From a virus (Duplodnaviria; Heunggongvirae; Uroviricota; Caudoviricetes): a DNA stretch of 40,514 bases. Shown here in pieces: positions 3,081-40,079 of the stretch. The stretch spans positions 1 through 40,514 of the IMG/VR virus record IMGVR_UViG_2529292831_000017; one strand, written 5' to 3'. How positions within the stretch are numbered: position 1 is the stretch's first letter; each line of letters begins with the position of its first letter. The position numbers and the translations under genes were made by a program. The notes below the pieces were generated by a model. That model worked only from the letters and a program-made list of their open reading frames with translations. It was not told the origin of the DNA and searched no databases.

Positions 3081-3562
3081 GACAGCAGCCCTCCCACCGT
3101 TTTACTGATATCGCTTAAGGCAGACGTTGCCGTATCCTGCAAATTATTCAGCTGCGCACGTAGATCACCGAACATATCGGACAGGGATTCATCCACCCGT
3201 TTGAGCGACAGGGTGAACTCAATCCGGCGCGGCATACCATCGCGGAAAAACTCCGTTTTAGTCTGATTCAGTCCCTCAATCACATACATGCCGTAAATCG
3301 TGCCGCTGCCTTCAATCAGGGGCCATGCTTTCCCCTGTTCTGCCATCTGCTCCAGTGCCAGTAACGACAGCCTGCCGCCTGTTATCTCCGGCATAAGAAC
3401 GCCAGAAAGCGTCAGCATGTCGTTATCCGGTCCCAGAAACTGCGTGGACGGGCGTCGGTTAACCCGGCTGTTAGCCGCATGTCGCCAGCTGCGCTGATAC
3501 TGCAGCTCCTGATACGGCACGGTGCGCAGCATAAACACGTACAATCCCAGCACCATCATCAT
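3077..3562 (-). CDS. U: Tail protein U (P2 gpU-like)
   Basis: 161 aa, overlaps the D start and T stop by 4 bp as in the P2 tail operon. Confidence 0.8.
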   Translation of the reverse strand: MMMVLGLYVFMLRTVPYQELQYQRSWRHAANSRVNRRPSTQFLGPDNDMLTLSGVLMPEITGGRLSLLALEQMAEQGKAWPLIEGSGTIYGMYVIEGLNQTKTEFFRDGMPRRIEFTLSLKRVDESLSDMFGDLRAQLNNLQDTATSALSDISKTVGGLLS

Positions 3563-6500
3563 GCGTCGTATCCCCCCTGATCGCTGTAGTTACTCCTGGC
3601 TTTTGCCTTCAGCCTGCGTTCACGTTCATCAAGCTGGCGGGCCACCTCCCGCGCAATATCCTGCGCACTTTGTCCTGGCTGTGTCTGGATGATGATCTGC
3701 GTCGGTGCCTCAATCCGTTGAACGAGCGGCACAGTGGCTGCGCGACTCACAATTGCTTCTCCACCTTTCGCGGGAAGTGCCAAAGGGTGCAACGGTGGAA
3801 GCTCTGCTGGCGCGGCAGCAACGCCCATCATTCCGGCAACAACGGCAGCCAGTGCAGCTGTATTTCTCCGGCTGGTCACATTTGCCGGGCCGTTAACAAT
3901 TTCCGGCCCGTTTTCACCGACGATGCCAAACTGCCCGCGCGGGATATACCCTCCGCTGTCATACATCCCCGCAAAGCCATATCCCCATGACGGAAAACCA
4001 CCCGATGGCATCATCACTTTACCGTCTGCATTCACCGTCGCAAGTTGCTGACGCGTCACGCTTTCCGGCAGTTTTGCCTTTGCGGCCTCTTTACTGACAA
4101 TGCCAAGTTTCTCCAGTAACCATGAAACGCCGGATTTCAGGGAGTCCAGCGGATGCATGACCATATTCAGCCCTTCCGCCAGTGCCTCTCCGAATCGCCG
4201 CCCCATTGCCGCTGCACTCTGCAGTTCGGCAGAGGTCGACTTAACGGGCGTCAGCAGATCAGTAAACCAGCCCCACAGCGCCTGTACTTTGTCGCCAATC
4301 CACTGGAACACGGGCTTAAGCGGTTCGAATGCTGCACTGACGGGACCTGCCGCCGCTTTGAATCCTTCCACCACGCCACCAAGAAATGCGGTGATGGGTT
4401 GCCAGTATTTCCAGACAACCAGCGCCACGCCCGCCAGTGCAGTAACCACAAGACCTATCGGACTGAGCAGAGCACCTAACAGACCAGATACGGCATACAG
4501 GGCAACGCGCAGCATCGCCAGTGGACCAGATGCCAGTACTCGCAGCACCGTGCCTGCGGCGACCAGTCCACCGCGCAGTACCGCCAGAGGATTCATAAAC
4601 ATCACAGCAACAGCACGTAAACCGGATAATCCAGACCGCAAAAGTGCAACCGGCGCACCTGCTACAGTTTTCAGGACATTTCCCGTCAGTGATGCCGTGC
4701 GGCGCAAAGACGACAACGGCGCAGTAAGTAAACCCGCTGCGTTGCCCGATGAAGCAAGCCCGCGTCGCAGCAGTGCCAGTGGAGCGCCAGCTAACCAGGA
4801 CAACGCGCTGCTGGTTCGTGTTACTGCTGCCGTAACGGAAGGTAACGTTTTGATACCCAGCACAGAGAATCCCAGACGGATGACTGCCAGCGGCCCCAGC
4901 ACTGCAGCCAGCGCCACCGCTAAGGTGCCGAGGCCTACGGTAACCGCAGCCACAACAGCCGCTACTTTCATCAGTGTGCCTGTCAGTTCCGGGTTAGCTT
5001 CCACCCAGCGGCGCAACGCCCCCGTGATGCTTTTCACCGTGTACAGAATATCCATCAGCGGCTGGCGCAGCGTTTCGCCCAGGCTGCTGAAGGTGTTCTG
5101 CGCTCCGGTTTTGACCAGCAACCACTGAGCAGAAAGTGAGTCTTTGTTGATGTCGGATTCTTTCTGCATGGAACCGAGCGCATCATTGCCCGCTGTCAGT
5201 TTTAGCTGGCGCTGCAGTTCCGGAAGGTTGTTTGCCAGTTTCGCCGCGTCATCACCAAACTCTTTACCAAACAACATGGTCATGGCAGACAGACGCTTGT
5301 CCTGCGGCAGTGCGTTCACCTTCTCCAGCACACGCTGGATAGTTCCCATCGCATCCTTCGTCATCTGCTTTTCAATCACTTCAGGATTGAGTTTCAGCAG
5401 ATTCATCCCTTCAAAGAAACTCTTGCTTTGCATGGTGGCAATGGACAATTCACGCACCATCGCGTTTGCTGCACTGGCTGCAACCTCTGGCGCAGCACCC
5501 AGTGTCAGAAAGGTGGAACCCAGTGCCGCCGCTTTACGATAATCCAGACGGTCAGCCACACCACCCAGGCGTTGCATGACATCAATGATATCTGCCCCTT
5601 TCGACATGGCGTTATCATCCAGATAGTTCAGCGCATCACCGAGCTGTTCAATATTGCGGGTAGGGATGTTGTAGAGCTGGGCGATTTTCCCCAGACTTTC
5701 TGACAGTTCATCCGCTGGCAGCTCAAAGGCTGTTGCCGCCTTTGCTGCCGTACTGGCGAAGGCCAGCAGGTCACGTTTCTGGTCTTCCCAGCTGTCGTCA
5801 GGGTTTGCGACGTTCATGCGCGCACCACCTTCAACCAGTGCAGCGAAATCCACCGCACCGTTTTCCATCGGCAACTGTTCGCTGGCAGCCTTGATGGCAT
5901 CCTGCATTTCATAAAAACGTGCTGTGCGGTTGCCATTATCGTCACGCAGACCATTGACCTGCTTTGCCACACCTTTCATGGCATCTTCCATGCTGGTATA
6001 GCTTTTTACTGCCGCCATCACTGGTGCGCCCATTGCCAGCCCTGCAGCCGTGGTGGTGGCTCCGGCACCTGCAATACGATCGCGCACCTCCAGCGAACGG
6101 GCATAACTGGCACGTGCTGCATTCATCCTGCGCTGAGCTTCCCCCAGTCGCTTCAGCCGCGCCTCCTGTTTCGACAATTCCTGGTTATAACGTGATGTTT
6201 CACGGGCTAAACGGGCGGTTGCTCCCGCATCATCTTTCGCAGAAATTCCCGCCCGGTACAGTTCTGCACGCACAAGCGCCGTTTGCTTCTGCAAATATTT
6301 TTGCTGTTCTTCCAGGCGTTGGACTGCCAGCGTTTGCCGACCTAAAGCCACAAGGTGCCGTTGTGATGGTTGTTCCATCGCCTCCAGCTCAGAGCTAAGC
6401 AAATTAGCCTTCTGTCTGGCATAGTTCAGCCTGTCGCCTAACTTCTTGTTATCAGCCTGCAGCTTGCGAAATTTTTCCAGGCTATTACCCGCCTGATTGA

Positions 6501-6636
6501 GTTGCTTTAATGCGTCACGGGAGTTTCTGATTGCGCCAGCCAGCTCTTTCGAACTGGCCTGTGCAACACGGAATGGGCGGGGGAGTTTGTCAACCGCATT
6601 AAGAATGACCTGCAGCCGCAGGTTGTTATCACTCAT
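3559..6636 (-). CDS. T: Tail tape measure protein (P2 gpT-like)
   Basis: 1025 aa, Ala/Gly-rich, coiled-coil N-terminus and hydrophobic central repeats; position after E/E'. Confidence 0.9.
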   Translation of the reverse strand: MSDNNLRLQVILNAVDKLPRPFRVAQASSKELAGAIRNSRDALKQLNQAGNSLEKFRKLQADNKKLGDRLNYARQKANLLSSELEAMEQPSQRHLVALGRQTLAVQRLEEQQKYLQKQTALVRAELYRAGISAKDDAGATARLARETSRYNQELSKQEARLKRLGEAQRRMNAARASYARSLEVRDRIAGAGATTTAAGLAMGAPVMAAVKSYTSMEDAMKGVAKQVNGLRDDNGNRTARFYEMQDAIKAASEQLPMENGAVDFAALVEGGARMNVANPDDSWEDQKRDLLAFASTAAKAATAFELPADELSESLGKIAQLYNIPTRNIEQLGDALNYLDDNAMSKGADIIDVMQRLGGVADRLDYRKAAALGSTFLTLGAAPEVAASAANAMVRELSIATMQSKSFFEGMNLLKLNPEVIEKQMTKDAMGTIQRVLEKVNALPQDKRLSAMTMLFGKEFGDDAAKLANNLPELQRQLKLTAGNDALGSMQKESDINKDSLSAQWLLVKTGAQNTFSSLGETLRQPLMDILYTVKSITGALRRWVEANPELTGTLMKVAAVVAAVTVGLGTLAVALAAVLGPLAVIRLGFSVLGIKTLPSVTAAVTRTSSALSWLAGAPLALLRRGLASSGNAAGLLTAPLSSLRRTASLTGNVLKTVAGAPVALLRSGLSGLRAVAVMFMNPLAVLRGGLVAAGTVLRVLASGPLAMLRVALYAVSGLLGALLSPIGLVVTALAGVALVVWKYWQPITAFLGGVVEGFKAAAGPVSAAFEPLKPVFQWIGDKVQALWGWFTDLLTPVKSTSAELQSAAAMGRRFGEALAEGLNMVMHPLDSLKSGVSWLLEKLGIVSKEAAKAKLPESVTRQQLATVNADGKVMMPSGGFPSWGYGFAGMYDSGGYIPRGQFGIVGENGPEIVNGPANVTSRRNTAALAAVVAGMMGVAAAPAELPPLHPLALPAKGGEAIVSRAATVPLVQRIEAPTQIIIQTQPGQSAQDIAREVARQLDERERRLKAKARSNYSDQGGYDA

Positions 6637-7065
6637 CGTTGGCCCCGCTTCTCTGAATCGCTTTATACCGCCATTCCAGCACTTCGGTCAGCGGCATAAC
6701 GTCAGTAACGGATGGCGGCCAGTGAAAAATGGTGGCGATGTCTGCCACCAGATCGTCAACCGTCAGGCTGTCGGTAAACCGGCAAGCACCGACTTCTTCA
6801 ACAAAAAAGTGACAACCTCAACCGACATAGCGGTGAGATCTGCCGGGTCCATCTCTGCGATTTCCTGTGCAGTCAGTACCGGACTGGAAATGCGGGGGAT
6901 CACGGTCATCATCGCGTTCACATCCATATCCATAATGGCCTGCAGGCGCGTGCCGCGCAGCGCACCGGACTGCGGCTTACGCAGCACAATTTCGGTGATT
7001 TCCGTTTTACCGCGCTTGATAGGGGTATCCAGTTGAATGGTCTTTTCAGTCTGCTTATCGCTCAT
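6629..7065 (-). CDS. E+E' tail assembly chaperone fusion made by programmed -1 frameshift
   Basis: Slippery heptamer T-TTT-TTG (- strand, + coordinates 6802-6808) lies 13 codons before the E stop. Hand translation of the -1 frame shows it open from the slip site to a TGA at 6629-6631 overlapping the T start; predicted fusion about 145 aa. Confidence 0.55.
6763..7065 (-). CDS. E: Tail assembly chaperone E (P2 gpE-like)
   Basis: 100-aa ORF between FII and T carrying the slippery site. Confidence 0.8.
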   Translation of the reverse strand: MSDKQTEKTIQLDTPIKRGKTEITEIVLRKPQSGALRGTRLQAIMDMDVNAMMTVIPRISSPVLTAQEIAEMDPADLTAMSVEVVTFLLKKSVLAGLPTA

Positions 7066-7119
7066 TTTGTTGTCCTGTAAATTGGGTTCTGGCGCGGTAT
7101 CCCGCGCCGTTCAGATACA

Positions 7120-7635
7120 TCAGAGGCCGAGGGCGTTGCGGTGCGCTTCCATCAGGTCCACACCGTCCACAATTTCCACCATGTTGATAAGGTCCACTTC
7201 ATAGAGCACCTCACCATTGATGGTCAGCTTCGCGTAGCTGTTGGTACTGGTCACTTTGGTGGTGTTGCTTTCGCCTGTCTTCCACTCGCCGGAATCCACT
7301 TCTTTGTGACGTCCACGCACCACAAGCTCCACGGCCTGCACTTCCCCGGTATCGTCACGCTGGATAGAGCCGGTAAAGCGCAACTGGATGCCATCCACCG
7401 TGGATTTGCCCATCTGCTTAAACAGCAGCAGTTCGGTACCACCAATGGAAAATTCTGTATCCAGTGCACTGTCATCCAGTCCCAGATCCACATCCACCGC
7501 CCCCGGCATACCGCCGCCGCGATACTTCTCATATTTGCGGGTGAATTTCGGCAGCGTCAGCGACTCAACGATTCCCTGCCAGTTGTTCCCGTCGTTAAAC
7601 AGGTTCAGATGTTTTAATTTGCGTGGTAAAGCCAT
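7120..7635 (-). CDS. FII: Tail tube protein FII
   Basis: 171 aa, directly downstream of the sheath gene; P2 gpFII-like size. Confidence 0.85.
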   Translation of the reverse strand: MALPRKLKHLNLFNDGNNWQGIVESLTLPKFTRKYEKYRGGGMPGAVDVDLGLDDSALDTEFSIGGTELLLFKQMGKSTVDGIQLRFTGSIQRDDTGEVQAVELVVRGRHKEVDSGEWKTGESNTTKVTSTNSYAKLTINGEVLYEVDLINMVEIVDGVDLMEAHRNALGL

Positions 7636-9384: not shown

Positions 9385-11114
9385 CAGACCCCCTCCGCAA
9401 TAAACCCAATATTCCATCCACCGTTATCTCCGGTGATGCTCAGAGTAAAGCCAGTTGCAGTAATAGCTGTAATGGCGACACCCTCAACACTCCCACCGTG
9501 TGACGAACGGAAAACGGGGATCACGTACCAGCACTGACGGGCAAATGGTGTCGGAAAATTCACCTGATACTCTTTATTCACCACACCCGTTGCCCCGGAA
9601 AAATAACTGTTAAAAAACTGCTTCAGCACACCGCCAGTTATTCGGTGATAATTGCTGCCAAATGAAAATTCATCTTCACAAACACCCCGACGCCATAGTG
9701 TTGTATTGTCTTTAACCGTATCAGAGCCGCTGAAACGGTGATACATTTCCCCTGCTCCGGTGATGAAAATCTGCGCGCGTCTGTTCTTGTTATACGCAGC
9801 CTGAAAACCTGCACCATTCGATGGTACTTCATCTGCATTACCTGAATATGCAAGAAACTGTGAAACCTCACCCATTTCGTAGTTATTATTGCTACCGATT
9901 CCGTATGCTCCCTGTTGTAGAGCACTTTCAGCCTTATCAACCGTCGGTTTAAGTCCCAGATTCTGAATAAACAAAGTCGGGTCAGGAATATCAGCACCAT
10001 TGCGGTCCTTTGCCAGTCTCGCGCTGGCGTTGTCCATCGCAATTTTTACCGCTTTCAATGTCGCCGCAACATTTTCTGACACGCTGTTTACATCGTTCCC
10101 CAGTTGCACCATTCCTTTAACACTCACTGATGCTTCTGGATAATGTGCACTGGTGAACACCTGATTCCACGGTGTTTCATCATCGGCAATTTTCGATAAC
10201 ATGCTGAATCGACAGTACATCTTGCCATCATTAGCGACATAAATTTGTGCACGTCGATTGTCGTTGTAACAGGCCTGGAAACCAGCACCATGTGTTGGCA
10301 CTTCTGGATAGCCGACAGCTGTACCATAAGCAAAAAATTGCGATTTGGTTCCCATGGTTTTCAGATAAGCCAGGCCAATTCCATAATCTCCTGGCTGAAT
10401 CGCTGATGCAGCTTTATCAACAGTCGTTTTCAATCCCAGATTCTGAACAAACAGTGCCGGATTGGGAATATCAGAACCATTGCGGTCTTTTGCCAGTCTG
10501 GCGCTGGCATTATCCATCGCTATTTTCACTGCTTTTGGCGTTGCAGCGACTGTTTCATCATTGCTTTCCACACCGCTATACAGACGTACAAATCCCTTTT
10601 CTGTCAAAGACGCAGAAGGATGGCGGCGCGATTGCTCATGAATCTCTATTTGTTGATCTACATAATGACGGGTTGCCAGCACGACAGCAGGGTCGATTTT
10701 CAGGGTGATATTGTCCGTGCTGCTGGTAATCAGCACCATGCGCACGGTCTGGGTACGCCCGCTGCCTTCAGCCAGTTGCGGTTTATAGCTTTCCGGGCAG
10801 TTCCCCACGGCAATCAATGCCCCTGACTCATCAAACAGGCCCACTTCACGTATCCACCAACCGCCCTCGTTTTCAGGGATCACCTGTTCAGCAATAATCT
10901 GGCTGCTGTTCTGCGGGTCGATATAGAGCATATTCAGCGCAGCCCGGCGTTTCTCATTTACCAATGCCGTCTGCTTTGCGTCCGGCGTCGGCAATGCTCC
11001 GCCGCCATCGCCCACCGCCATATGGGTAATTTTTAGCGGCACACCGAGCGCGGCGGCGCTGGCAAGTTTCGCCGCGCCAATATCCGTCAGCAGGGTATAA
11101 AATTTTGTGCTCAT
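9384..11114 (-). CDS. H: Tail fibre protein H
   Basis: 576 aa; N-terminal 150 aa match the conserved P2 gpH baseplate-attachment domain (MSTKF...MAVGDGGG...ESYKPQLAEGSGR); C-terminal part divergent and internally repeated. Confidence 0.85.
   Translation of the reverse strand: MSTKFYTLLTDIGAAKLASAAALGVPLKITHMAVGDGGGALPTPDAKQTALVNEKRRAALNMLYIDPQNSSQIIAEQVIPENEGGWWIREVGLFDESGALIAVGNCPESYKPQLAEGSGRTQTVRMVLITSSTDNITLKIDPAVVLATRHYVDQQIEIHEQSRRHPSASLTEKGFVRLYSGVESNDETVAATPKAVKIAMDNASARLAKDRNGSDIPNPALFVQNLGLKTTVDKAASAIQPGDYGIGLAYLKTMGTKSQFFAYGTAVGYPEVPTHGAGFQACYNDNRRAQIYVANDGKMYCRFSMLSKIADDETPWNQVFTSAHYPEASVSVKGMVQLGNDVNSVSENVAATLKAVKIAMDNASARLAKDRNGADIPDPTLFIQNLGLKPTVDKAESALQQGAYGIGSNNNYEMGEVSQFLAYSGNADEVPSNGAGFQAAYNKNRRAQIFITGAGEMYHRFSGSDTVKDNTTLWRRGVCEDEFSFGSNYHRITGGVLKQFFNSYFSGATGVVNKEYQVNFPTPFARQCWYVIPVFRSSHGGSVEGVAITAITATGFTLSITGDNGGWNIGFIAEGV
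9726..10559. repeat. Intragenic tandem duplication in tail fibre gene H (two ~0.35-kb units about 480 bp apart)
   Basis: Protein segments aa ~186-304 and ~346-463 are near-identical in blocks (KAVKIAMDNASARLAKDRNG, LFxQNLGLK, HGAGFQAxYNxNRRAQI); DNA copies at ~10203-10559 and ~9726-10079. Confidence 0.6.
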
Positions 11115-32475: not shown

Positions 32476-33120
32476 ATGGAGTATTTGATGATCAACATTC
32501 AGGCAGGTCCCAATACGGGAGGTAGAGAGGCGATCGAAAGATTGCTTAAGGCATATGGATTCAGCACCAAACAAGCACTAGCTGACCATTTAAAAATTTC
32601 AAAAAGTACTATGGCAAACAGAAACTTACGAGATAGCTTTCCTGCTGAGTGGGTCATCCAGTGTGCACTTGAAACAGGGGTTTCGCTGCTATGGCTAGCC
32701 ACAGGCCAGGGTGAAATGTTCACTTCAGAAGATCGAGAAAAAAATCCCGTAAACGAGTCAAACGTCACGCTTCGACCACTTTCCAAAATCGTTGCCCCCA
32801 GCATTAAGCAAGCCGAATTGAAGAATGGGGAGTTGAATAACGAAGGGGAAGTCTTGCTTGATAGCAGCTTACTGGACAGTGAGCCCGGCAATTCATTGTT
32901 TATAAAAACGTCTACTGACTGCTTTGTAGTGGATATATCTGTCAAACAGGTTAGCAATGGTTACTGGCTTGTCGATATTGATGGGGTGAAAAGCATCGTC
33001 AAGATTGCCCGAATACCAGGCAACAGAATTGTTGTTCACCAGGACGACTCATCCTTTGAGTGTTCTGTTGATGATGTGGAAGTTGTCGGGCGAGCCATTA
33101 AAGTAATCAAGAGTATTTAG
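32476..33120 (+). CDS. cI: CI-type immunity repressor
   Basis: N-terminal HTH-like segment (KQALADHLKISKSTMANRN) plus C-terminal domain; co-oriented with and directly upstream of int. Confidence 0.75.
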   Translation: MEYLMINIQAGPNTGGREAIERLLKAYGFSTKQALADHLKISKSTMANRNLRDSFPAEWVIQCALETGVSLLWLATGQGEMFTSEDREKNPVNESNVTLRPLSKIVAPSIKQAELKNGELNNEGEVLLDSSLLDSEPGNSLFIKTSTDCFVVDISVKQVSNGYWLVDIDGVKSIVKIARIPGNRIVVHQDDSSFECSVDDVEVVGRAIKVIKSI

Positions 33121-33122
33121 TC

Positions 33123-34142
33123 ATGACCATCAGGAAACAGCCGAACGGAAAATGGTTGTGTGAGTGCTACCCTAACGGGCGGGACGGCAAGCGCGTGCGC
33201 AAGCAATTTGCGACGAAAGGCGAAGCCGTAGCATTCGAAAACTTCACCATGGATGAAGTAAACAAAAAACCATGGCTGGGGGAAAAGGAAGATCGGCGGC
33301 ATCTGTCAGAAGTGATAGAGCAATGGCACTCACTATACGGGCAGACGCTCGCAGACCCCAAACGCCTGATGGCGAAACTTAGAATTATCTGTAATGGCCT
33401 GGGCGACCCTATCGCCTCAGAGCTGACCGCCGGAGATTTTACGAAATACCGTGAAGCGCGATTAAAAGGTGAAGTGCGAAATGAAGATGGCGCGCTTATG
33501 TCGCCAGTTAAGCCCCGAACGGTAAACCTCGAACAACGCAACCTATCATCAGTTTTTGGGACTCTGAAAAAACTGGGCCACTGGTCAGCCCCTAACCCGC
33601 TCGCCGGTCTGCCAACATTCAAAATCGCAGAGGGTGAACTGGCATTCCTGACCCCAGAAGAAATTAAACGCCTGCTGGATGCCTGCGCGGATTCTCAAAG
33701 CCCCAGCCTGCTGATGATTGCAAAAATATGCCTAGCTACTGGTGCGCGGTGGAGTGAAGCAGAAAACCTGCAGGGCCATCAGTTATCAAAATACCGCATC
33801 ACTTATACCAAGACGAAGGGCAAGAAAAACCGTACCGTGCCGATATCTCAGGATCTGTATGACGAACTCCCCAAGAACAGAGGGAAGTTATTCACCCCAT
33901 GCAGAAAAGCTTTTGAGCGTGCAGTTAAACGAGCTGGTATCGACTTGCCAGAGGGACAATGTACCCACGTCTTGCGCCATACATTCGCCAGTTACTTTAT
34001 GATGAATGGAGGGAATATTCTTGTACTAAGAGATATTTTAGGCCATTCAGATATAAAAATGACTATGGTCTATTCTCATTTTTCACCTGAGCATCTTGAA
34101 GATGCTGTAACAAAAAACCCTTTATCATCACTAGCGATTTAA
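33123..34142 (+). CDS. int: Tyrosine integrase (P2/186 Int-like)
   Basis: C-terminal catalytic region HVLRHTFASYFMMNGGNILVLRDILGHSDIKMTMVYSH with the R...HxxR...Y signature. Confidence 0.9.
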   Translation: MTIRKQPNGKWLCECYPNGRDGKRVRKQFATKGEAVAFENFTMDEVNKKPWLGEKEDRRHLSEVIEQWHSLYGQTLADPKRLMAKLRIICNGLGDPIASELTAGDFTKYREARLKGEVRNEDGALMSPVKPRTVNLEQRNLSSVFGTLKKLGHWSAPNPLAGLPTFKIAEGELAFLTPEEIKRLLDACADSQSPSLLMIAKICLATGARWSEAENLQGHQLSKYRITYTKTKGKKNRTVPISQDLYDELPKNRGKLFTPCRKAFERAVKRAGIDLPEGQCTHVLRHTFASYFMMNGGNILVLRDILGHSDIKMTMVYSHFSPEHLEDAVTKNPLSSLAI

Positions 34143-34146
34143 CATA

Positions 34147-35358
34147 ATGAAAATTAATAAAATTAGTACCACAGATTATGTAGCAATGCTTAATGAAATA
34201 TTATTCGAAATAGAGTCCAAACCACTATTAAAAGCTCCTTATCTCGCGGGAAATAATATCATTAAAGATTTTAACAATAGGGTTAAATGTTACCTAGAAG
34301 TCATAAACAAGATTTACAGTAAAAACCCTCACAACCTTGTAATTCGTGAAATAAAATCAAAAATAAAAAGCACAAAAACACTCTCGGATAAAATTTCAGA
34401 AACACTTAGATTATATTTAAACGGTAAAATCAAAGAATCTTACCTAACATTTGATCACGCTATCACCAAGACAAATATAAATGACCACATCTATAATATG
34501 TCCGTTCCATTAAGTGTGTTTTGTCATCCTGGAAAACCTCTATTTCGCGTAAGAAAAAGCGATCAAATAATAAAAGAAAGGCGTGATATCTTTCATATTC
34601 CTTTTTCTAAACGTTATCTTGTGAATGCACAAAGATACTCAGTCTCAGGCCTTCCTTGTTTATATTTAGGAACCTCTATTTTTGTATGTTGGCAAGAAAT
34701 GGAAAAACCAGACTTTGATAAATTATATGTATCTTCATTCATCACAGAGTCTGGTTCATCACATAGAATACTTAACCTTGGTTATAATTTGAGATCAGCA
34801 TTGAACATAAACACCTTAGCATGGCTGTTAGATAATGATACTGAAGGAACTATGAATAGGGTCATTTCGAACTTAATTTCCTGGCCACTTGTGTTAGCCT
34901 GTAATTATACAAAACAACATAAAAACTCTAGTTTCAACCCTGAGTACATAATCCCCAACCTTCTTATGCAATGGCTCAGCAGCAATGAAAATAAGGGCAT
35001 AGCCGGTATCGCTTATCGCACGACTAAAATTCTCAATCAAAAAGATAGTGATATTGGTATTAATATAATCATGCCACCTAAAATGGATAATATTTTGGAT
35101 TCTGGTTATGATTACTGCCCACACTTACTAAGTGTATTTAAATTTACCAAACCTGTTTCATGGCAAGTATTTAGCACTTTAAACGTCAAGACCGATGGTA
35201 TGGATGAAGATAGACTCATAATGGGAGGACCAACTCCAGCATCAGGTACAATTGAAGATTTTGATGAATCGCTAGTGGAATATTACAATAATACCTCATT
35301 CAAAAAAGTTCAATTGTTAATTCATAAAATGATGAAGCATGATTATCTTGAGCCTTAA
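34147..35358 (+). CDS. Accessory gene: 403-aa protein with RES-domain-like motifs
   Basis: About 30% GC; starts 4 bp after the int stop; LFRVRK...QRYSVSGLPCLYLGTSIFVCWQEM and later GIAGIAYRTTKI...GINIIMPP follow the RES pattern (conserved Arg, Glu, Ser/Thr). Confidence 0.5.
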   Translation: MKINKISTTDYVAMLNEILFEIESKPLLKAPYLAGNNIIKDFNNRVKCYLEVINKIYSKNPHNLVIREIKSKIKSTKTLSDKISETLRLYLNGKIKESYLTFDHAITKTNINDHIYNMSVPLSVFCHPGKPLFRVRKSDQIIKERRDIFHIPFSKRYLVNAQRYSVSGLPCLYLGTSIFVCWQEMEKPDFDKLYVSSFITESGSSHRILNLGYNLRSALNINTLAWLLDNDTEGTMNRVISNLISWPLVLACNYTKQHKNSSFNPEYIIPNLLMQWLSSNENKGIAGIAYRTTKILNQKDSDIGINIIMPPKMDNILDSGYDYCPHLLSVFKFTKPVSWQVFSTLNVKTDGMDEDRLIMGGPTPASGTIEDFDESLVEYYNNTSFKKVQLLIHKMMKHDYLEP

Positions 35359-35387
35359 GTGGCGGCGTTTTGGCGGTAGAGTATTAA
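35359..35387. repeat. 29-bp imperfect direct repeat, copy 1 (copy 2 at 36317-36345)
   Basis: GTGGCGGCGTTTTGGCGGTAGAGTATTAA versus CTGGCGGCACTTTGGCGGCAGAGCATTAA (24/29 identical); each ends in the stop codon region of a cargo gene. Confidence 0.6.
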
Positions 35388-35391
35388 GAGG

Positions 35392-36345
35392 ATGCAGTTA
35401 CAAAAAACCTCTAACTCCATTATAGAAATAGGAAGTGATCTGATGAATAACATCATCTATACAAACGAACAATATGAAATCGAAAATCTAAGTATAGCCC
35501 TGTATGCAATTTTCGATAAAATAAAAGAAAGGATTTCCATCGCCGAAGAATCTAACATTTACACTATCAGAGATGTTGGTCATAACTCGGAATCTCAAGT
35601 TTGCAAAAACACTTTTAATAAATTAACGCAATTTTTTGATTCAAACATTCTTTACATCCAAGACTGTGAAGTCTTAATTTCATATATAACAGAGTGCAGT
35701 TTGGAACTCTCTGTTATAGCGCAACAATTTTATGAAATACTCTGGAGCGATTTGTTAATAACCACACCAGACAAAGATTTTAAAGGGATTTTAGTAGCAA
35801 AATCGCCAAAAACAAGCTTGCTATTTTCTTTGTTAAGCATGCTATTTATAAAAATGAATAGTTTGTTTGACTACGTTACTAAAATCTCCTTTGAATTATT
35901 AAAGAGTAACTTCCCAATCTCTAAATACAAGAAATTAATATCCAAAAATAAATTATACGGCAACTATAAAGAATTAGTTTTTTCGACAACAACGGATACC
36001 ATATTTGAAAATAGCAATTTTATAAACACTGTAACATCATTACGAAATCATATAATTCACCACGGTTATATAGATGAGCACCCAAAGGTATATGTTGAAG
36101 TGGAAAATGGCATTGCATTTGGGAGATTTGTACTATTCCCCGATTTGAATGAGAGTGGAGGACTGGAAAATTGCATTAACAGAACTTTATTCTATTCAAA
36201 AGAAACAAAGATTGATGAAAAATTACCTGACTTAATTAAGGAATGCCAAATTAAAGTAATTAACTCGTTGAAGGTACTAATTAAAGATCATGAAGCATTA
36301 GAAGATTCAAGAAAGACTGGCGGCACTTTGGCGGCAGAGCATTAA
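35392..36345 (+). CDS. Accessory gene: 317-aa protein with an Rx4H (HEPN-like) motif
   Basis: About 30% GC; motif SLRNHIIHHG parallels SLRNALFHNG in the 13616 ORF; the ATG at 35443 has the better SD (AGGAAG, 7-nt spacer). Confidence 0.5.
   Translation: MQLQKTSNSIIEIGSDLMNNIIYTNEQYEIENLSIALYAIFDKIKERISIAEESNIYTIRDVGHNSESQVCKNTFNKLTQFFDSNILYIQDCEVLISYITECSLELSVIAQQFYEILWSDLLITTPDKDFKGILVAKSPKTSLLFSLLSMLFIKMNSLFDYVTKISFELLKSNFPISKYKKLISKNKLYGNYKELVFSTTTDTIFENSNFINTVTSLRNHIIHHGYIDEHPKVYVEVENGIAFGRFVLFPDLNESGGLENCINRTLFYSKETKIDEKLPDLIKECQIKVINSLKVLIKDHEALEDSRKTGGTLAAEH
36317..36345. repeat. 29-bp imperfect direct repeat, copy 2
   Basis: See copy 1; a related sequence AGTGGCGGCAAAATGGCGACAGAC also occurs near attL (1107-1130). 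Confidence 0.6.
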
Positions 36346-36430
36346 AAACGAGTAAAATGAACAAACACCGAGTAATACCAACCTACTGTTTTAAAAAGCA
36401 AATCATTGTTTTTGTTATAGTTAAGATAGT

Positions 36431-36478
36431 ATGTAGGAATTTCGGACGCGGGTTCAACTCCCGCCAGCTCCACCAAAT
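36431..36478. repeat. attR: second copy of the 48-bp ssrA 3' end
   Basis: Exact copy of 1016-1063; flanks diverge immediately outside the repeat. Confidence 0.85.
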
Positions 36479-36506: not shown

Positions 36507-36545
36507 AAAAAGCCCGCATGGCACAAGCCCTGCGGGCTTTTTTGT
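36507..36545. terminator. Bidirectional rho-independent terminator after attR
   Basis: AGCCCGCA...TGCGGGCT stem flanked by AAAA and TTTTTTG. Confidence 0.6.
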
Positions 36546-36659: not shown

Positions 36660-37856
36660 GTGGCACGGACAACACGCCCCCTGACCAACACCGAAGTTCT
36701 GCGCGCTAAAGCGATGGAGAAGGATCTAACGCTGCATGATGGCGATGGCCTTTTCCTAATAGTGAAAACCAGCGGGAAAAAGCTCTGGCGCTTCCGTTAT
36801 CAACGTCCAGTGACAAAACAGCGGACAATGATGGGACTAGGTGCTTTCCCCGCTCTTTCACTTGCTGACGCCCGAGGGTTAAGAGCAGATTACCTTGCCT
36901 TGTTAGCCAACGGAATTGACCCACAAATTCAGGCCGAAGTTGCAAAGGAACAGCAGCAAATCGCTCTGGACAGTATTTTTTCAACGGTTGCCGCTAACTG
37001 GTTCCAGCTCAAAAGTAAAAGCGTTACCCCTGATTACGCAAAAGACATTTGGCGTTCACTGGAGAAAGATGTATTCCCTGTCATTGGTGAGATCCCCGTT
37101 CAGCAAATCAAAGCACGAACTTTGGTTGAAGCCCTTGAGCCAATCAAAGCTCGTGGGGCGCTTGAGACTGTACGTCGACTTGTGCAGCGCATCAACGAGA
37201 TAATGATTTATGCCGTAAACACTGGTCTGATTGATGCCAATCCAGCATCAGGTATTGGAATGGCCTTTGAGAAGCCCAAAAAACAAAACATGCCGACGCT
37301 GCGGCCAGAAGAATTGCCGAAGCTGATGCGTTCTTTGGTTATGTCTAATCTGTCTGTTCCGACGCGTTGTCTTATTGAGTGGCAACTTCTCACGCTTGTG
37401 CGCCCTTCTGAAGCATCCGGCACTCGATGGGCAGAAATCGATCTCGATGCCAAGCTCTGGACGATCCCAGCCGAACGGATGAAGGCCAAGCGTGAACATA
37501 TTGTTCCTCTATCTCCTCAGGCATTAGAGATTCTGGAAGTAATGAGGCCAATCAGTGCTCACCGTGAGCATGTTTTTCCAAGCAGAAATGATCCAAAGCA
37601 AGCGATGAATAGTCAGACTGCAAATGCCGCGTTAAAACGAATTGGATATGGAGGTAAATTAGTAGCTCATGGTTTGCGCTCAATAGCGAGTACTGCTATG
37701 AATGAAGCTGGTTTTAATTCAGATGTGATTGAAGCAGCACTCGCTCATAGTGATAAAAATGAAGTGCGAAAAGCTTATAATCGCGCGACATATATCAATG
37801 CTAGAAAAGAAATTATGAATTGGTGGGGAAATTGCATCAATAAAAGTAAGATCTAA
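36660..37856 (+). CDS. P4-type tyrosine integrase (CP4-57 IntA-like)
   Basis: 398 aa, GTG start with SD AAGGAG; N-terminal arm-binding-type domain plus catalytic region (HGLRSIAST...LAHSD...VRKAYNRATY); P4-family integrases typically target ssrA and tRNA genes. Confidence 0.9.
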   Translation: MARTTRPLTNTEVLRAKAMEKDLTLHDGDGLFLIVKTSGKKLWRFRYQRPVTKQRTMMGLGAFPALSLADARGLRADYLALLANGIDPQIQAEVAKEQQQIALDSIFSTVAANWFQLKSKSVTPDYAKDIWRSLEKDVFPVIGEIPVQQIKARTLVEALEPIKARGALETVRRLVQRINEIMIYAVNTGLIDANPASGIGMAFEKPKKQNMPTLRPEELPKLMRSLVMSNLSVPTRCLIEWQLLTLVRPSEASGTRWAEIDLDAKLWTIPAERMKAKREHIVPLSPQALEILEVMRPISAHREHVFPSRNDPKQAMNSQTANAALKRIGYGGKLVAHGLRSIASTAMNEAGFNSDVIEAALAHSDKNEVRKAYNRATYINARKEIMNWWGNCINKSKI

Positions 37857-37878: not shown

Positions 37879-38787
37879 TTAGATCATGGTTGCTATGCGT
37901 TCTTTTAAATAACCAAATTGCGTGTAGCCTTCATTCTTTTTAATTAAACTTGCTATTTGAGACTCGTTATAGCTACCTTCAAATCCATAAAGACAGAGCT
38001 CATCATTCCCACTGTAACAAAACTGACATTTATCTACCTCATCATGCAGACATTTTGTTTTCAACCCTTTAATTTCACCAATTAACATTCGGCAGAATTC
38101 GCCAATTAACCACTTACCTTTACATATATTAAGTAAACCTGCTAAGTCTTTGCTTACCCCCATCTGAATAGCAAATTCATCAAGTTCTTTTTCTCGCTCA
38201 ACAATTTTTTCAAAAGCGCCTATATTTTTCAAGTGTTGAACGCTCATCTTATATGATGCTAGAGATTCATAATCTTTCACGCAAGCTTTTTTCAAGCACT
38301 CTAAAGACATATAATACAACGACATTAGAGCCTCTGCTAAATTTTCATAGAGCATCTCAATTAACTCACTGGTTAGCAATTTTGGCTGTATTCTTGTACA
38401 TTGTTCAATAACACATTTTATTGCCTGCCGTGTGATAAAATGGCTTTCCATCGAGTACCATCTCAGCACAAAAACGGCTGAATTATTAACAACTTCACCT
38501 CGGTAGTAGCGAGCATCTCGATCTATAATGCCTAAAATGTAGTGCCCTAAATCCCCCTCATACTCAAGTTCAAGTAATGCCTCAATAAAGTCAATTACAC
38601 CTCTATTACCTTCACTCATATCCTTGAAATTCTGAACAGCAACCACCTCGAAATATTTATCAAGCTGTTGACAAATGCCTTCATAAATTGAAATGTCATC
38701 GACGCCTTCAACGACTAACATTGGCGTTTCAGACATAATTGCCTCATTCAATATTTCATCATACTCCATACTCAGCCAATCGTTCAT
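37879..38787 (-). CDS. ariB: TOPRIM/DUF4435-like nuclease, PARIS AriB-like (302 aa)
   Basis: N-terminal LVVEGVDD glutamate motif and ILGIIDRDARYY DxD motif; AT-rich; 4-bp overlap with the upstream ATPase gene. Confidence 0.55.
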   Translation of the reverse strand: MNDWLSMEYDEILNEAIMSETPMLVVEGVDDISIYEGICQQLDKYFEVVAVQNFKDMSEGNRGVIDFIEALLELEYEGDLGHYILGIIDRDARYYRGEVVNNSAVFVLRWYSMESHFITRQAIKCVIEQCTRIQPKLLTSELIEMLYENLAEALMSLYYMSLECLKKACVKDYESLASYKMSVQHLKNIGAFEKIVEREKELDEFAIQMGVSKDLAGLLNICKGKWLIGEFCRMLIGEIKGLKTKCLHDEVDKCQFCYSGNDELCLYGFEGSYNESQIASLIKKNEGYTQFGYLKERIATMI

Positions 38788-40079
38788 TTCGAATTATTCT
38801 CAATTTTAACCGGTGCAAGTTTAACCAGACTGTTGGGTGACTTCTTAGATATGATAGGGCTATGAGAGGCCACGATTATTTGTGTTTCTGGCACTAATTC
38901 CTGTAGAAGACTCAGCAATGTACGTTGCCATTTGATATTAAGAGAAATTTCTGGCTCATCAATAAGTAGAATATCTCTTCCACGACCTGCAATTATAACT
39001 ATTGATAGAAAGGTAAGAATATGCCTTTCACCACTTGATAATGCTCCGATGGATAAATGAGAGTCTTCAGTTTCAACATATATCTCATGCTTATTAATAA
39101 TTAACTTTTTATCTCCAACCAAGAAGGAGTTAAAGACATCAACCAAGATGTTAATGGAACTTAAAAGTTGTTTCTCAACCTTTAATTCACGAGTCATATT
39201 CATGACTAACTTTCTCAACAGTTGGTTTTCAAGTATTTTATTAACATCAGATTCACTTTGTATTGATGATAAAATATTAACAACATGATTTTTAAAATTA
39301 TTCTCAAAACCATCATCCAACGCTTCAATAATCCTCTCTTTATTTTTATATACATCACTCTCAAAATTCGAAGGCATCACGATATCTTCAGAAGTTTTCT
39401 TTGCATCCACTGCTATGGCCAACGTATCAAACAACGCATTTTGAATTCTTTCAGTAGCTATATTCCTTGCTAATAGATAACGTTCAACAAGCATATTCTC
39501 GATATTACTCATTTTTATATTTTGAAGAAAAACATGTTTTGCATCTAAATCCATATCATCTTTTTTATTTCTCCTCCTGTTGTTTTGATATCTCTTTAGA
39601 AACATTGCCATCCTTTCACTAAACAAATGAATATCTGTCTTCGCAAATAAAGAGCGATATTCTGGATGACCAAGAAATCTCAAAATATCCACTGGTTCAA
39701 CTTTCAATGACTCTGATGTTACGCCCCTCTCCACACCAAGAGATAATGATGTACAATCAGCTAATTCAGAATCGACAAGATCGCTCCAGTCGTATGAGTC
39801 TTTAATAATCCCCTCTTCTCCCTCCTCTTGAATCTGTCTTACTGGTACAAACTCTCTTTCTCCATTATTTTTCTCATAATAGATTTCAACATACATTACA
39901 TTTTCGCTTGCAAGCGACTCATCATCACGTTTAAGGATAGAATGTATTAATTTCAAAAATGTAGTTTTACCGCAACCATTATCACCATAAATAACAGATA
40001 TGTCACCATCAGCAAATTCAACATAAGCTGCTCTGTTAATTGATTGGAAGCCTGCAATGTATATAGATAATAGCTTCAT
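38784..40079 (-). CDS. ariA: ABC-type ATPase, PARIS AriA-like (431 aa)
   Basis: Walker A GDNGCGKTT, ABC signature LSSGERHIL, Walker B ILLIDEPE, H-loop ASHSP; AT-rich. Confidence 0.6.
   Translation of the reverse strand: MKLLSIYIAGFQSINRAAYVEFADGDISVIYGDNGCGKTTFLKLIHSILKRDDESLASENVMYVEIYYEKNNGEREFVPVRQIQEEGEEGIIKDSYDWSDLVDSELADCTSLSLGVERGVTSESLKVEPVDILRFLGHPEYRSLFAKTDIHLFSERMAMFLKRYQNNRRRNKKDDMDLDAKHVFLQNIKMSNIENMLVERYLLARNIATERIQNALFDTLAIAVDAKKTSEDIVMPSNFESDVYKNKERIIEALDDGFENNFKNHVVNILSSIQSESDVNKILENQLLRKLVMNMTRELKVEKQLLSSINILVDVFNSFLVGDKKLIINKHEIYVETEDSHLSIGALSSGERHILTFLSIVIIAGRGRDILLIDEPEISLNIKWQRTLLSLLQELVPETQIIVASHSPIISKKSPNSLVKLAPVKIENNSK

Follow-up and report, generated by a model that had tools for sequence, protein, structure and literature searches.

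At the right end of a 35.4-kb prophage of the 186/P2 type (186-like, Peduoviridae), two AT-rich genes lie between the integrase gene, int, and the right attachment site. The prophage is contained in IMG/VR virus record IMGVR_UViG_2529292831_000017, the 40,514-nucleotide (nt) stretch of DNA analyzed here (the window), and is inserted in the 3' end of the tmRNA gene ssrA. The first of the two genes, which we call A, codes for a predicted stand-alone RES-domain protein of 403 amino acids (aa), and the second, B, codes for a Cthe_2314-like HEPN candidate of 300 aa. We consider it probable that A and B are two unrelated single-gene cassettes, one RES-type and the other HEPN-like, and that they represent separate anti-phage genes stacked in the cargo slot of a 186-like prophage. 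We take this slot to extend from the int stop codon to the Int arm-type sites of attP.

On the plus strand, the right end of the prophage reads cI, int, A, B and attR. The 186-type CI repressor gene, cI (32476-33120; annotated in RefSeq as phage repressor protein CI), is the first gene of the rightward lysogenic operon, and a Pfam Phage_CI_repr match was found at loci homologous to this region. It is followed by int (33123-34142), which is present both in the list of open reading frames (ORFs) and in RefSeq and codes for the tyrosine integrase of the prophage. Gene A (34147-35358) begins directly after int, with a gap of 4 nt, and a spacer of 84 nt separates it from gene B (35443-36345). The attL core (1013-1063) is the 3' end of ssrA (698-1060), and the attR core (36428-36478) is a displaced ssrA 3' end; both are on the plus strand and form a direct repeat of 51 nt with 98% identity. 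The tmRNA fragment at attR is the sole match in an Rfam scan of the cassette. G+C content is 32.5% in A and 31.1% in B, compared with 48.5% in int and 50.8% in the rest of the prophage.

A preliminary description of this DNA had reported two co-oriented, AT-rich ORFs of 403 and 317 aa wedged between the int stop and the att repeat, and our coordinates and G+C contents agree with it. The motifs quoted there are all present in the translations of A and B. The size given for B holds in part: an ORF of 317 aa exists (35392-36345), whose in-frame ATG at 35392 would lengthen the protein, but the start is most likely at 35443 (M18 of this ORF), giving 300 aa. The same start is used in all homologues and in RefSeq, and AGGAAG is located 8 nt upstream. 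The accompanying premise, that attP normally lies directly beside int in such phages, does not hold for this lineage, as all ssrA-integrating 186-like prophages that we examined contain a cargo gene at this position. RefSeq labels the ORFs "hypothetical protein." E. coli 504237 (NZ_CP025862.1) has a sequence 100% identical to positions 34000-36475, to gene A and to almost the whole of gene B.

Whether homologues recur at the int-att junctions of other P2-like prophages had been raised as a question, and such recurrence is seen for A and for B, each alone. The sole int-att gene is a homologue of A in E. coli S88 and LF82, in Klebsiella and in Salmonella; for one Salmonella allele, the index contains more than 6,000 assembly blocks. 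Homologues of B are likewise the sole int-att gene in Klebsiella and Enterobacter prophages, and a third cargo, of 352 aa, occupies the same slot in other E. coli. Behind the closest homologue of A (69% identity) lies not B but a relative of this third cargo (41% identical to it). Among 5,426 complete E. coli genomes, both A and B are present in 11 (at least 99% identity) and a diverged A without B is present in 30 more; B was never found outside the carriers of both genes. A and B thus co-occur as a single pair of alleles (identity of at least 99%), an association that is not kept across diverged homologues. Overall, three or more mutually unrelated cargo families, and two combinations in which cargos are stacked, are found in the slot, which is delimited by conserved arm sites. 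Because each family occurs alone in the slot, the closest A is paired with another gene, and a scar marks the A-B junction (see below), the two genes do not appear to constitute one system. These results contradict the dual-effector system proposed in the preliminary description.

The int-att interval of P2-like phages holds 3% of P2 defense systems (Rousset et al. 2022, PMC9122126; Moura de Sousa et al. 2026, bioRxiv 10.64898/2026.02.27.708500). The slot is thus an already published, minor P2 defense hotspot.

A member of the third cargo family (352-360 aa) is the only cargo in E. coli BE2-5, and another follows the closest A homologue in a Logan contig; the genes are located at 3145-4203 in our locus L002 and at 6271-7353 in locus L025. 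Hydrophobic N-terminal stretches are recognizable by eye, and searches of Pfam and PADLOC gave zero matches. That the 352-aa protein might be a diverged A or B was ruled out by using hhalign.

The sequence between A and B preserves evidence of how the two genes came together. Every slot variant ends at TGGCGGCAyTTTGGCGGCAGAGCATTAA, roughly 80 nt before the ssrA core. The window contains 14 copies of the octamer TGGCGRCA, where 3.6 are expected, and pairs with 11-bp spacing are clustered by both att cores; this layout makes it likely that the clusters are Int arm-type sites. Three such octamers are found near attL (1109-1156) and are likely sites of the P' arm. At the other end, a functional-looking pair, TGGCGGCA-N3-TGGCGGCA (36318-36345, plus strand; octamers at 36318-36336), closes the slot in all variants. 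A decayed duplicate of the arm-site element (TGGCGGCGTTTTGGCGGTAGAGTATTAA; 35360-35387, plus strand), whose pattern has a match in locus L001, is located directly after the stop codon of A. Fused to this decayed copy is a 31-nt remnant of an int 3' end (35379-35409, plus strand) that is 77% identical to 34089-34119. In prophages that have only B, the int 3' ends located before B can be aligned with this remnant, which presumably came with the B cassette. Given the decayed arm copy and the int remnant between A and B, we therefore conclude that two cassettes have been joined. The arrangement shows what we interpret as a B cassette, together with a piece of its donor's int, placed behind an A cassette that still held its own arm element.

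The 3' end of B also overlaps this boundary. Its last 9 codons (GGTLAAEH and the stop) are encoded by the attP arm-site element at 36318-36345, which is where homology to the att regions of other phages begins, and, in other prophages, the homologues of B end immediately upstream of the element. The B allele of this prophage is evidently one that has lost its own stop codon and reads through the arm sites.

On the plus strand between 32300 and 36525, zero terminator-like sites were found. The first terminator-like hairpin downstream of cI, int, A and B is the native ssrA terminator (36525-36539, plus strand). When we sought a separating promoter, promoter-like sites were no commoner than in shuffled sequence. 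Because int and A are only 4 nt apart and no terminator-like site precedes the ssrA terminator, A and B are probably co-transcribed with cI and int from the lysogenic promoter.

Protein A by itself has zero matches in Pfam, NCBIfam and PADLOC, and scans of protein B against these three collections likewise produced no useful match. A PHROGs search with A and B returned only families of unknown function, and sequence searches of PDB, with single proteins as well as family profiles, gave nothing relevant for either. The A family comprises 315 clusters at E ≤ 1e-3, the best 120 of which are all enterobacterial, and 27 of 46 diverse relatives exhibit weak matches to Pfam RES (best E 0.0045). An AlphaFold2 model of A built on 46 sequences (predicted local distance difference test score (pLDDT) 85; predicted template modeling score (pTM) 0.86) consists of a helical N-terminal domain (aa ~1-118), a core with the RES/ADP-ribosyltransferase (ART) fold (aa ~119-350) and a C-terminal tail, and a fold search with the model recovered the three-dimensional RES fold. 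The RES catalytic motifs are encoded at 34546-34698 (plus strand) and include LFRVR (R134, R136), QRYS (R163), LYLG (Y173) and WQE (E184). All five of these residues are invariant in 46 of 46 relatives, and position 292 is S or T.

Conservation is unevenly distributed along A. Mean pairwise identity in the family is 57-70% in the catalytic segments and 25-32% in the N-terminus, an insert (aa 201-245) and the C-terminus; the N-terminal domain is a Cys-free helical bundle. Such a conserved core with a variable periphery would be expected if a fixed effector carried recognition surfaces that evolve quickly. Relatives of A are also carried by the free phages Cartapus, RE2010 and SopEPhi and by Bacillus phage SPbeta, whose YopC protein is a full-length relative (30% identical across 322 aa; E 7e-43) with a Pfam RES score of 22.4 bits, the cut-off being 23.2. 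Taken together, the comparisons support the view that A is a stand-alone RES-domain enzyme keeping all of the residues needed for NAD+ (nicotinamide adenine dinucleotide) cleavage in characterized RES proteins. The RES assignment made in the preliminary description is thus upheld by the fold search, the conserved catalytic residues and the weak profile matches of the relatives.

For B, a word-indexed search returned four close relatives, and an exhaustive HMMER search with a profile of these four found 240 cluster representatives, mostly of 310-350 aa. An alignment of 53 relatives has only five invariant columns, corresponding to D143, R201, H206, R247 and F250 in the 300-aa numbering. Of these residues, R201 and H206 form an Rx4H motif (RNHIIH, encoded at 36043-36060 on the plus strand) and are also invariant in a second alignment of 45 relatives. 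Weak matches to the HEPN family PF18730 (HEPN_Cthe2314) cover the motif-bearing region in 12 of the 53 relatives. All 12 are sub-threshold, the best (E 2.8e-5) scoring 24.6 bits where the cut-off is 27.1, and the window protein itself has no HEPN-family profile match. The AlphaFold2 model of B has a pLDDT of 84. That B is HEPN-like is likely but not established. The HEPN/Rx4H call of the preliminary description accordingly stands, given the invariant R and H and the sub-threshold matches, although less firmly than the RES call for A.

Distant relatives of B reside on mobile elements, among Bacteroidota conjugative-transposon genes and in regions rich in insertion sequences, as well as beside a type IIG restriction-modification gene and a SocA/Panacea gene. 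Many relatives of B from Bacteroidota (P0252, P0296 and about 60 others) have lengths of about 560 aa, with roughly 250 extra residues. In one of the 53 aligned relatives, an N6-adenine DNA methylase domain is joined to the protein, hinting at a link with restriction-modification. At two metagenomic loci, an ORF of 83-91 aa ends 4 nt before a distant B homologue (L023, 5746-5997; L024, 731-1006) and could be a partner, for example, an antitoxin; it has no counterpart before B in the prophage slot.

If A and B are independent anti-phage genes, as we favor, A would be held inactive in the lysogen until an infecting phage, detected by way of the variable regions, activates it. Active A would then destroy NAD+, and the infected cell would halt growth before the phage matures. 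B would act separately as a single-gene RNase of the abortive-infection (Abi) type. We propose an anti-phage role because of the family resemblance of both proteins, the published hotspot and the adjacent P4-like island, which carries PARIS in the window and Hachiman in strain D3.

Several points weigh against this interpretation. The enzymatic activities, the autoinhibition and triggering, and the anti-phage role of A and B are all suggested by family resemblance and context. The RES fold is also that of protein ADP-ribosyltransferases (ParT), and NAD+ depletion is not the sole possible chemistry. Window protein A has no match to Pfam RES (PF08808) at E ≤ 10, and hmmscan at the same threshold did not find PF18870 (HEPN_RES_NTD1)/Zn-ribbon in A or in its N-terminal 128 aa. 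The assignment of B as a putative HEPN protein draws on sub-threshold profile matches and motif conservation; fold searches with B gave only generic helical matches, and B has no sequence relative in PDB. PADLOC (PADLOC-DB v2) gave zero matches at E ≤ 10 for A and for the 317-aa form of B, and no meaningful match for the 53 relatives of B. For the 300-aa form, it gave only a chance-level match to Cas13a (E 0.061). The neighboring AriA and AriB were detected by the same tool.

We weighed four other explanations. The adjacency, shared orientation and equal AT-richness of A and B, the lack of a terminator-like site between them, and the retention of the pair, with at least 99% identity, by 11 E. 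coli genomes of diverse origin would all be expected if they formed one two-gene dual-effector abortive-infection system, with a RES NADase and a HEPN RNase that cooperate or of which one regulates the other. We nevertheless regard such a system as quite improbable. The two genes co-occur as a single, near-clonal pair of alleles, diverged homologues of A (hundreds of clusters) and of B each stand alone in the same slot, the closest A is paired with a different gene, and the decayed arm copy and int remnant between the genes indicate a recent join of two cassettes. A still smaller chance attaches to a type II RES toxin-antitoxin pair in which A is the toxin and B, or a small frame upstream of B, is the antitoxin. 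Classical RES toxins do have an adjacent antitoxin, and yopC of SPbeta is preceded by a small helix-turn-helix (HTH) gene, yopB. However, antitoxins of Xre-RES systems are located upstream and have an HTH/DUF2384 domain, whereas the gene upstream of A is int, and B has no match to an HTH or antitoxin family. Moreover, homologues of A without B are viable in thousands of genomes, and B is also found without A. The idea that B is an antitoxin or regulator of A was rejected, because each gene occurs without the other.

It is also conceivable, but in our view unlikely, that the genes serve the phage life cycle or lysogenic conversion and not defense against other phages. For example, A might be an ADP-ribosyltransferase modifying host proteins in the manner of ParT or of T4 Alt/Mod, or either gene might be a counter-defense gene or an addiction-type toxin by which the prophage is stabilized. 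The RES/ART fold does include ParT-type ADP-ribosylating toxins and is related to diphtheria toxin, and the A family is near-constant in ssrA-type 186-like phages, including the free phages Cartapus, RE2010 and SopEPhi, a distribution that might point to some benefit for the phage. However, the slot can be swapped among A, B, the third gene and combinations of them; therefore, no single cargo is needed for phage growth. An addiction module would call for an antitoxin partner, which is lacking, and a conserved core, a hypervariable periphery and a published defense hotspot fit immune sensors better. Finally, low G+C content and the annotation "hypothetical protein" might be taken to mean that the ORFs are decaying AT-rich junk, or are mis-called and functionless. 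This explanation has almost no chance of being correct: the families are large, dozens of residues are invariant across identities of 37-69% (A) and 21-53% (B), and confident structure models were obtained for both proteins. Family-wide conservation, as judged from the alignments, effectively refutes it.

A more far-reaching proposal, which we advance only tentatively, combines two statements: that A represents a distinct stand-alone RES branch of immunity with a new helical N-terminal sensor, and that the int-attP interval is a stacking platform. According to this joint proposal, the place of the Zn-ribbon/NTD1 sensor in the aRES defense proteins (discussed below) would be taken by the fast-evolving N-terminal domain, together with the insert and the tail, and the A branch would be carried by thousands of 186-like prophages of Salmonella, Klebsiella and E. 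coli. Duplication of the arm sites and the int 3' end would let single-gene defenses (RES, HEPN-like and membrane protein) combine in tandem, and lysogens would gain combinatorial immunity that travels with the phage.

If A does protect cells, immunity by RES-based NAD+ depletion would extend to a second architecture, one that is very common in clinically important Enterobacteriaceae, and the family would be a naturally occurring set of variable sensor regions attached to a fixed core, useful for mapping RES triggers. With B, a HEPN-like family comprising about 240 clusters would obtain its first phenotype. The boundary scars offer a concrete case of hotspot cargo being stacked, beyond swapping.

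The DNA beyond attR also carries defense-related genes. A second integrase gene, of the P4 type, is located immediately after attR (36660-37856). Next to it, the minus strand encodes a PARIS-like pair, consisting of a DUF4435/AriB gene (37879-38787) and an AAA_15/21 AriA ATPase gene (38784-40079), which is AT-rich as well (34.6% G+C). In strain D3, the same position is occupied by Hachiman (HamA and a helicase). Elsewhere in the prophage, a 239-nt segment of the late region has a second copy 480 nt downstream with 71% identity (9895-10613).

Comparison with known systems suggests that A is a new architectural variant of a recently described kind of RES protein, and that B is a member of an uncharacterized HEPN-like family. 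We see no sign of a new mechanism class; the locus provides two good defense candidates and a clear example of cassette stacking. The nearest characterized counterparts of A are the aRES proteins, a group of stand-alone RES proteins with lengths of 300-600 aa, which protect E. coli by degrading NAD+ to nicotinamide and ADP-ribose (ADPR)-1''-phosphate (Osterman et al., bioRxiv 10.64898/2026.01.28.702374). Their defense is lost upon mutation of R182, R184, R215, Y225, E236 or S334 to alanine, and they were detected as proteins with RES plus HEPN/RES-NTD1 (PF18870) by HHsearch on deep alignments (bioRxiv 10.64898/2026.01.28.702374). We compared A with the three aRES sequences in Table S4 of that report. 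BLASTP gave 21% identity over 156 aa (pairwise E 2e-5), and hhalign of the A family with the three proteins gave an E value of 0.001 and a probability of 22%, both confined to the RES domain. In both alignments, R134, R136, R163, Y173, E184 and T292 of A pair with R182, R184, R215, Y225, E236 and S334 of aRES. Like aRES, A is a single-gene protein of about 400 aa with a non-catalytic N-terminal domain, a RES domain and no antitoxin partner, and both are found in enterobacteria in defense-rich contexts. A has no operon partner, is within the 300-600 aa range at 403 aa, and is the sole int-att gene in other prophages. It differs in its N-terminal domain, which does not match Zn-ribbon/HEPN_RES_NTD1 (PF18870); in the same hmmscan, aRES UC5 matched RES with an E value of 3.8e-14 and PF18870 with 3.6e-4. 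Because of this different N-terminal domain, A is not an aRES protein by the published definition, though it most likely works like one.

Type II RES toxins (Xre-RES, MbcT-MbcA, ParST and NatRT) have about 150-250 aa and require an adjacent antitoxin. In contrast, A has 403 aa, extra domains and no antitoxin gene. An upstream Xre/DUF2384 antitoxin gene was not found in the window, where int precedes A by 4 nt, or in homologous loci. YopC of SPbeta and a Cartapus protein annotated as "putative RES protein, NAD+ binding domain" are true members of the A family; both are uncharacterized, and they add annotation rather than function. A search of the literature on yopC or the Cartapus gene found no functional data. 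The Cartapus protein (Cartapus being a prophage of LF82) is 42% identical to A and is encoded in the same int-att slot, and the similarity of YopC to A covers part of the N-terminal domain. The context of yopC differs, in that it lies after yopB, a 75-aa Cro/C1-type HTH gene that might be an Xre-like partner in SPbeta (L016, 2249-3912). A counterpart of yopB is not present at enterobacterial A loci.

B resembles Cthe_2314-like HEPN proteins (PF18730) and AbiD/F/J/U2/V in that it is stand-alone, has an invariant R-x4-H and is cargo of a mobile element, and its relatives show weak similarity to the PF18730 profile. In a 2013 census of HEPN proteins, Cthe_2314 was listed as a HEPN family without detected context (Anantharaman et al. 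2013, PMC3710099). Points of difference are the predicted fold of B, which has a beta-hairpin insert and long helices and gave no specific HEPN structural match, and the lack of a match to the PADLOC Abi models. As for the slot, it is like the defense hotspots of P2-like phages in carrying variable, quickly swapped cargo at a fixed prophage position. It differs in that its cargos have no match in PADLOC defense models, and in the boundary-scar evidence for tandem stacking, which comes from the present analysis.

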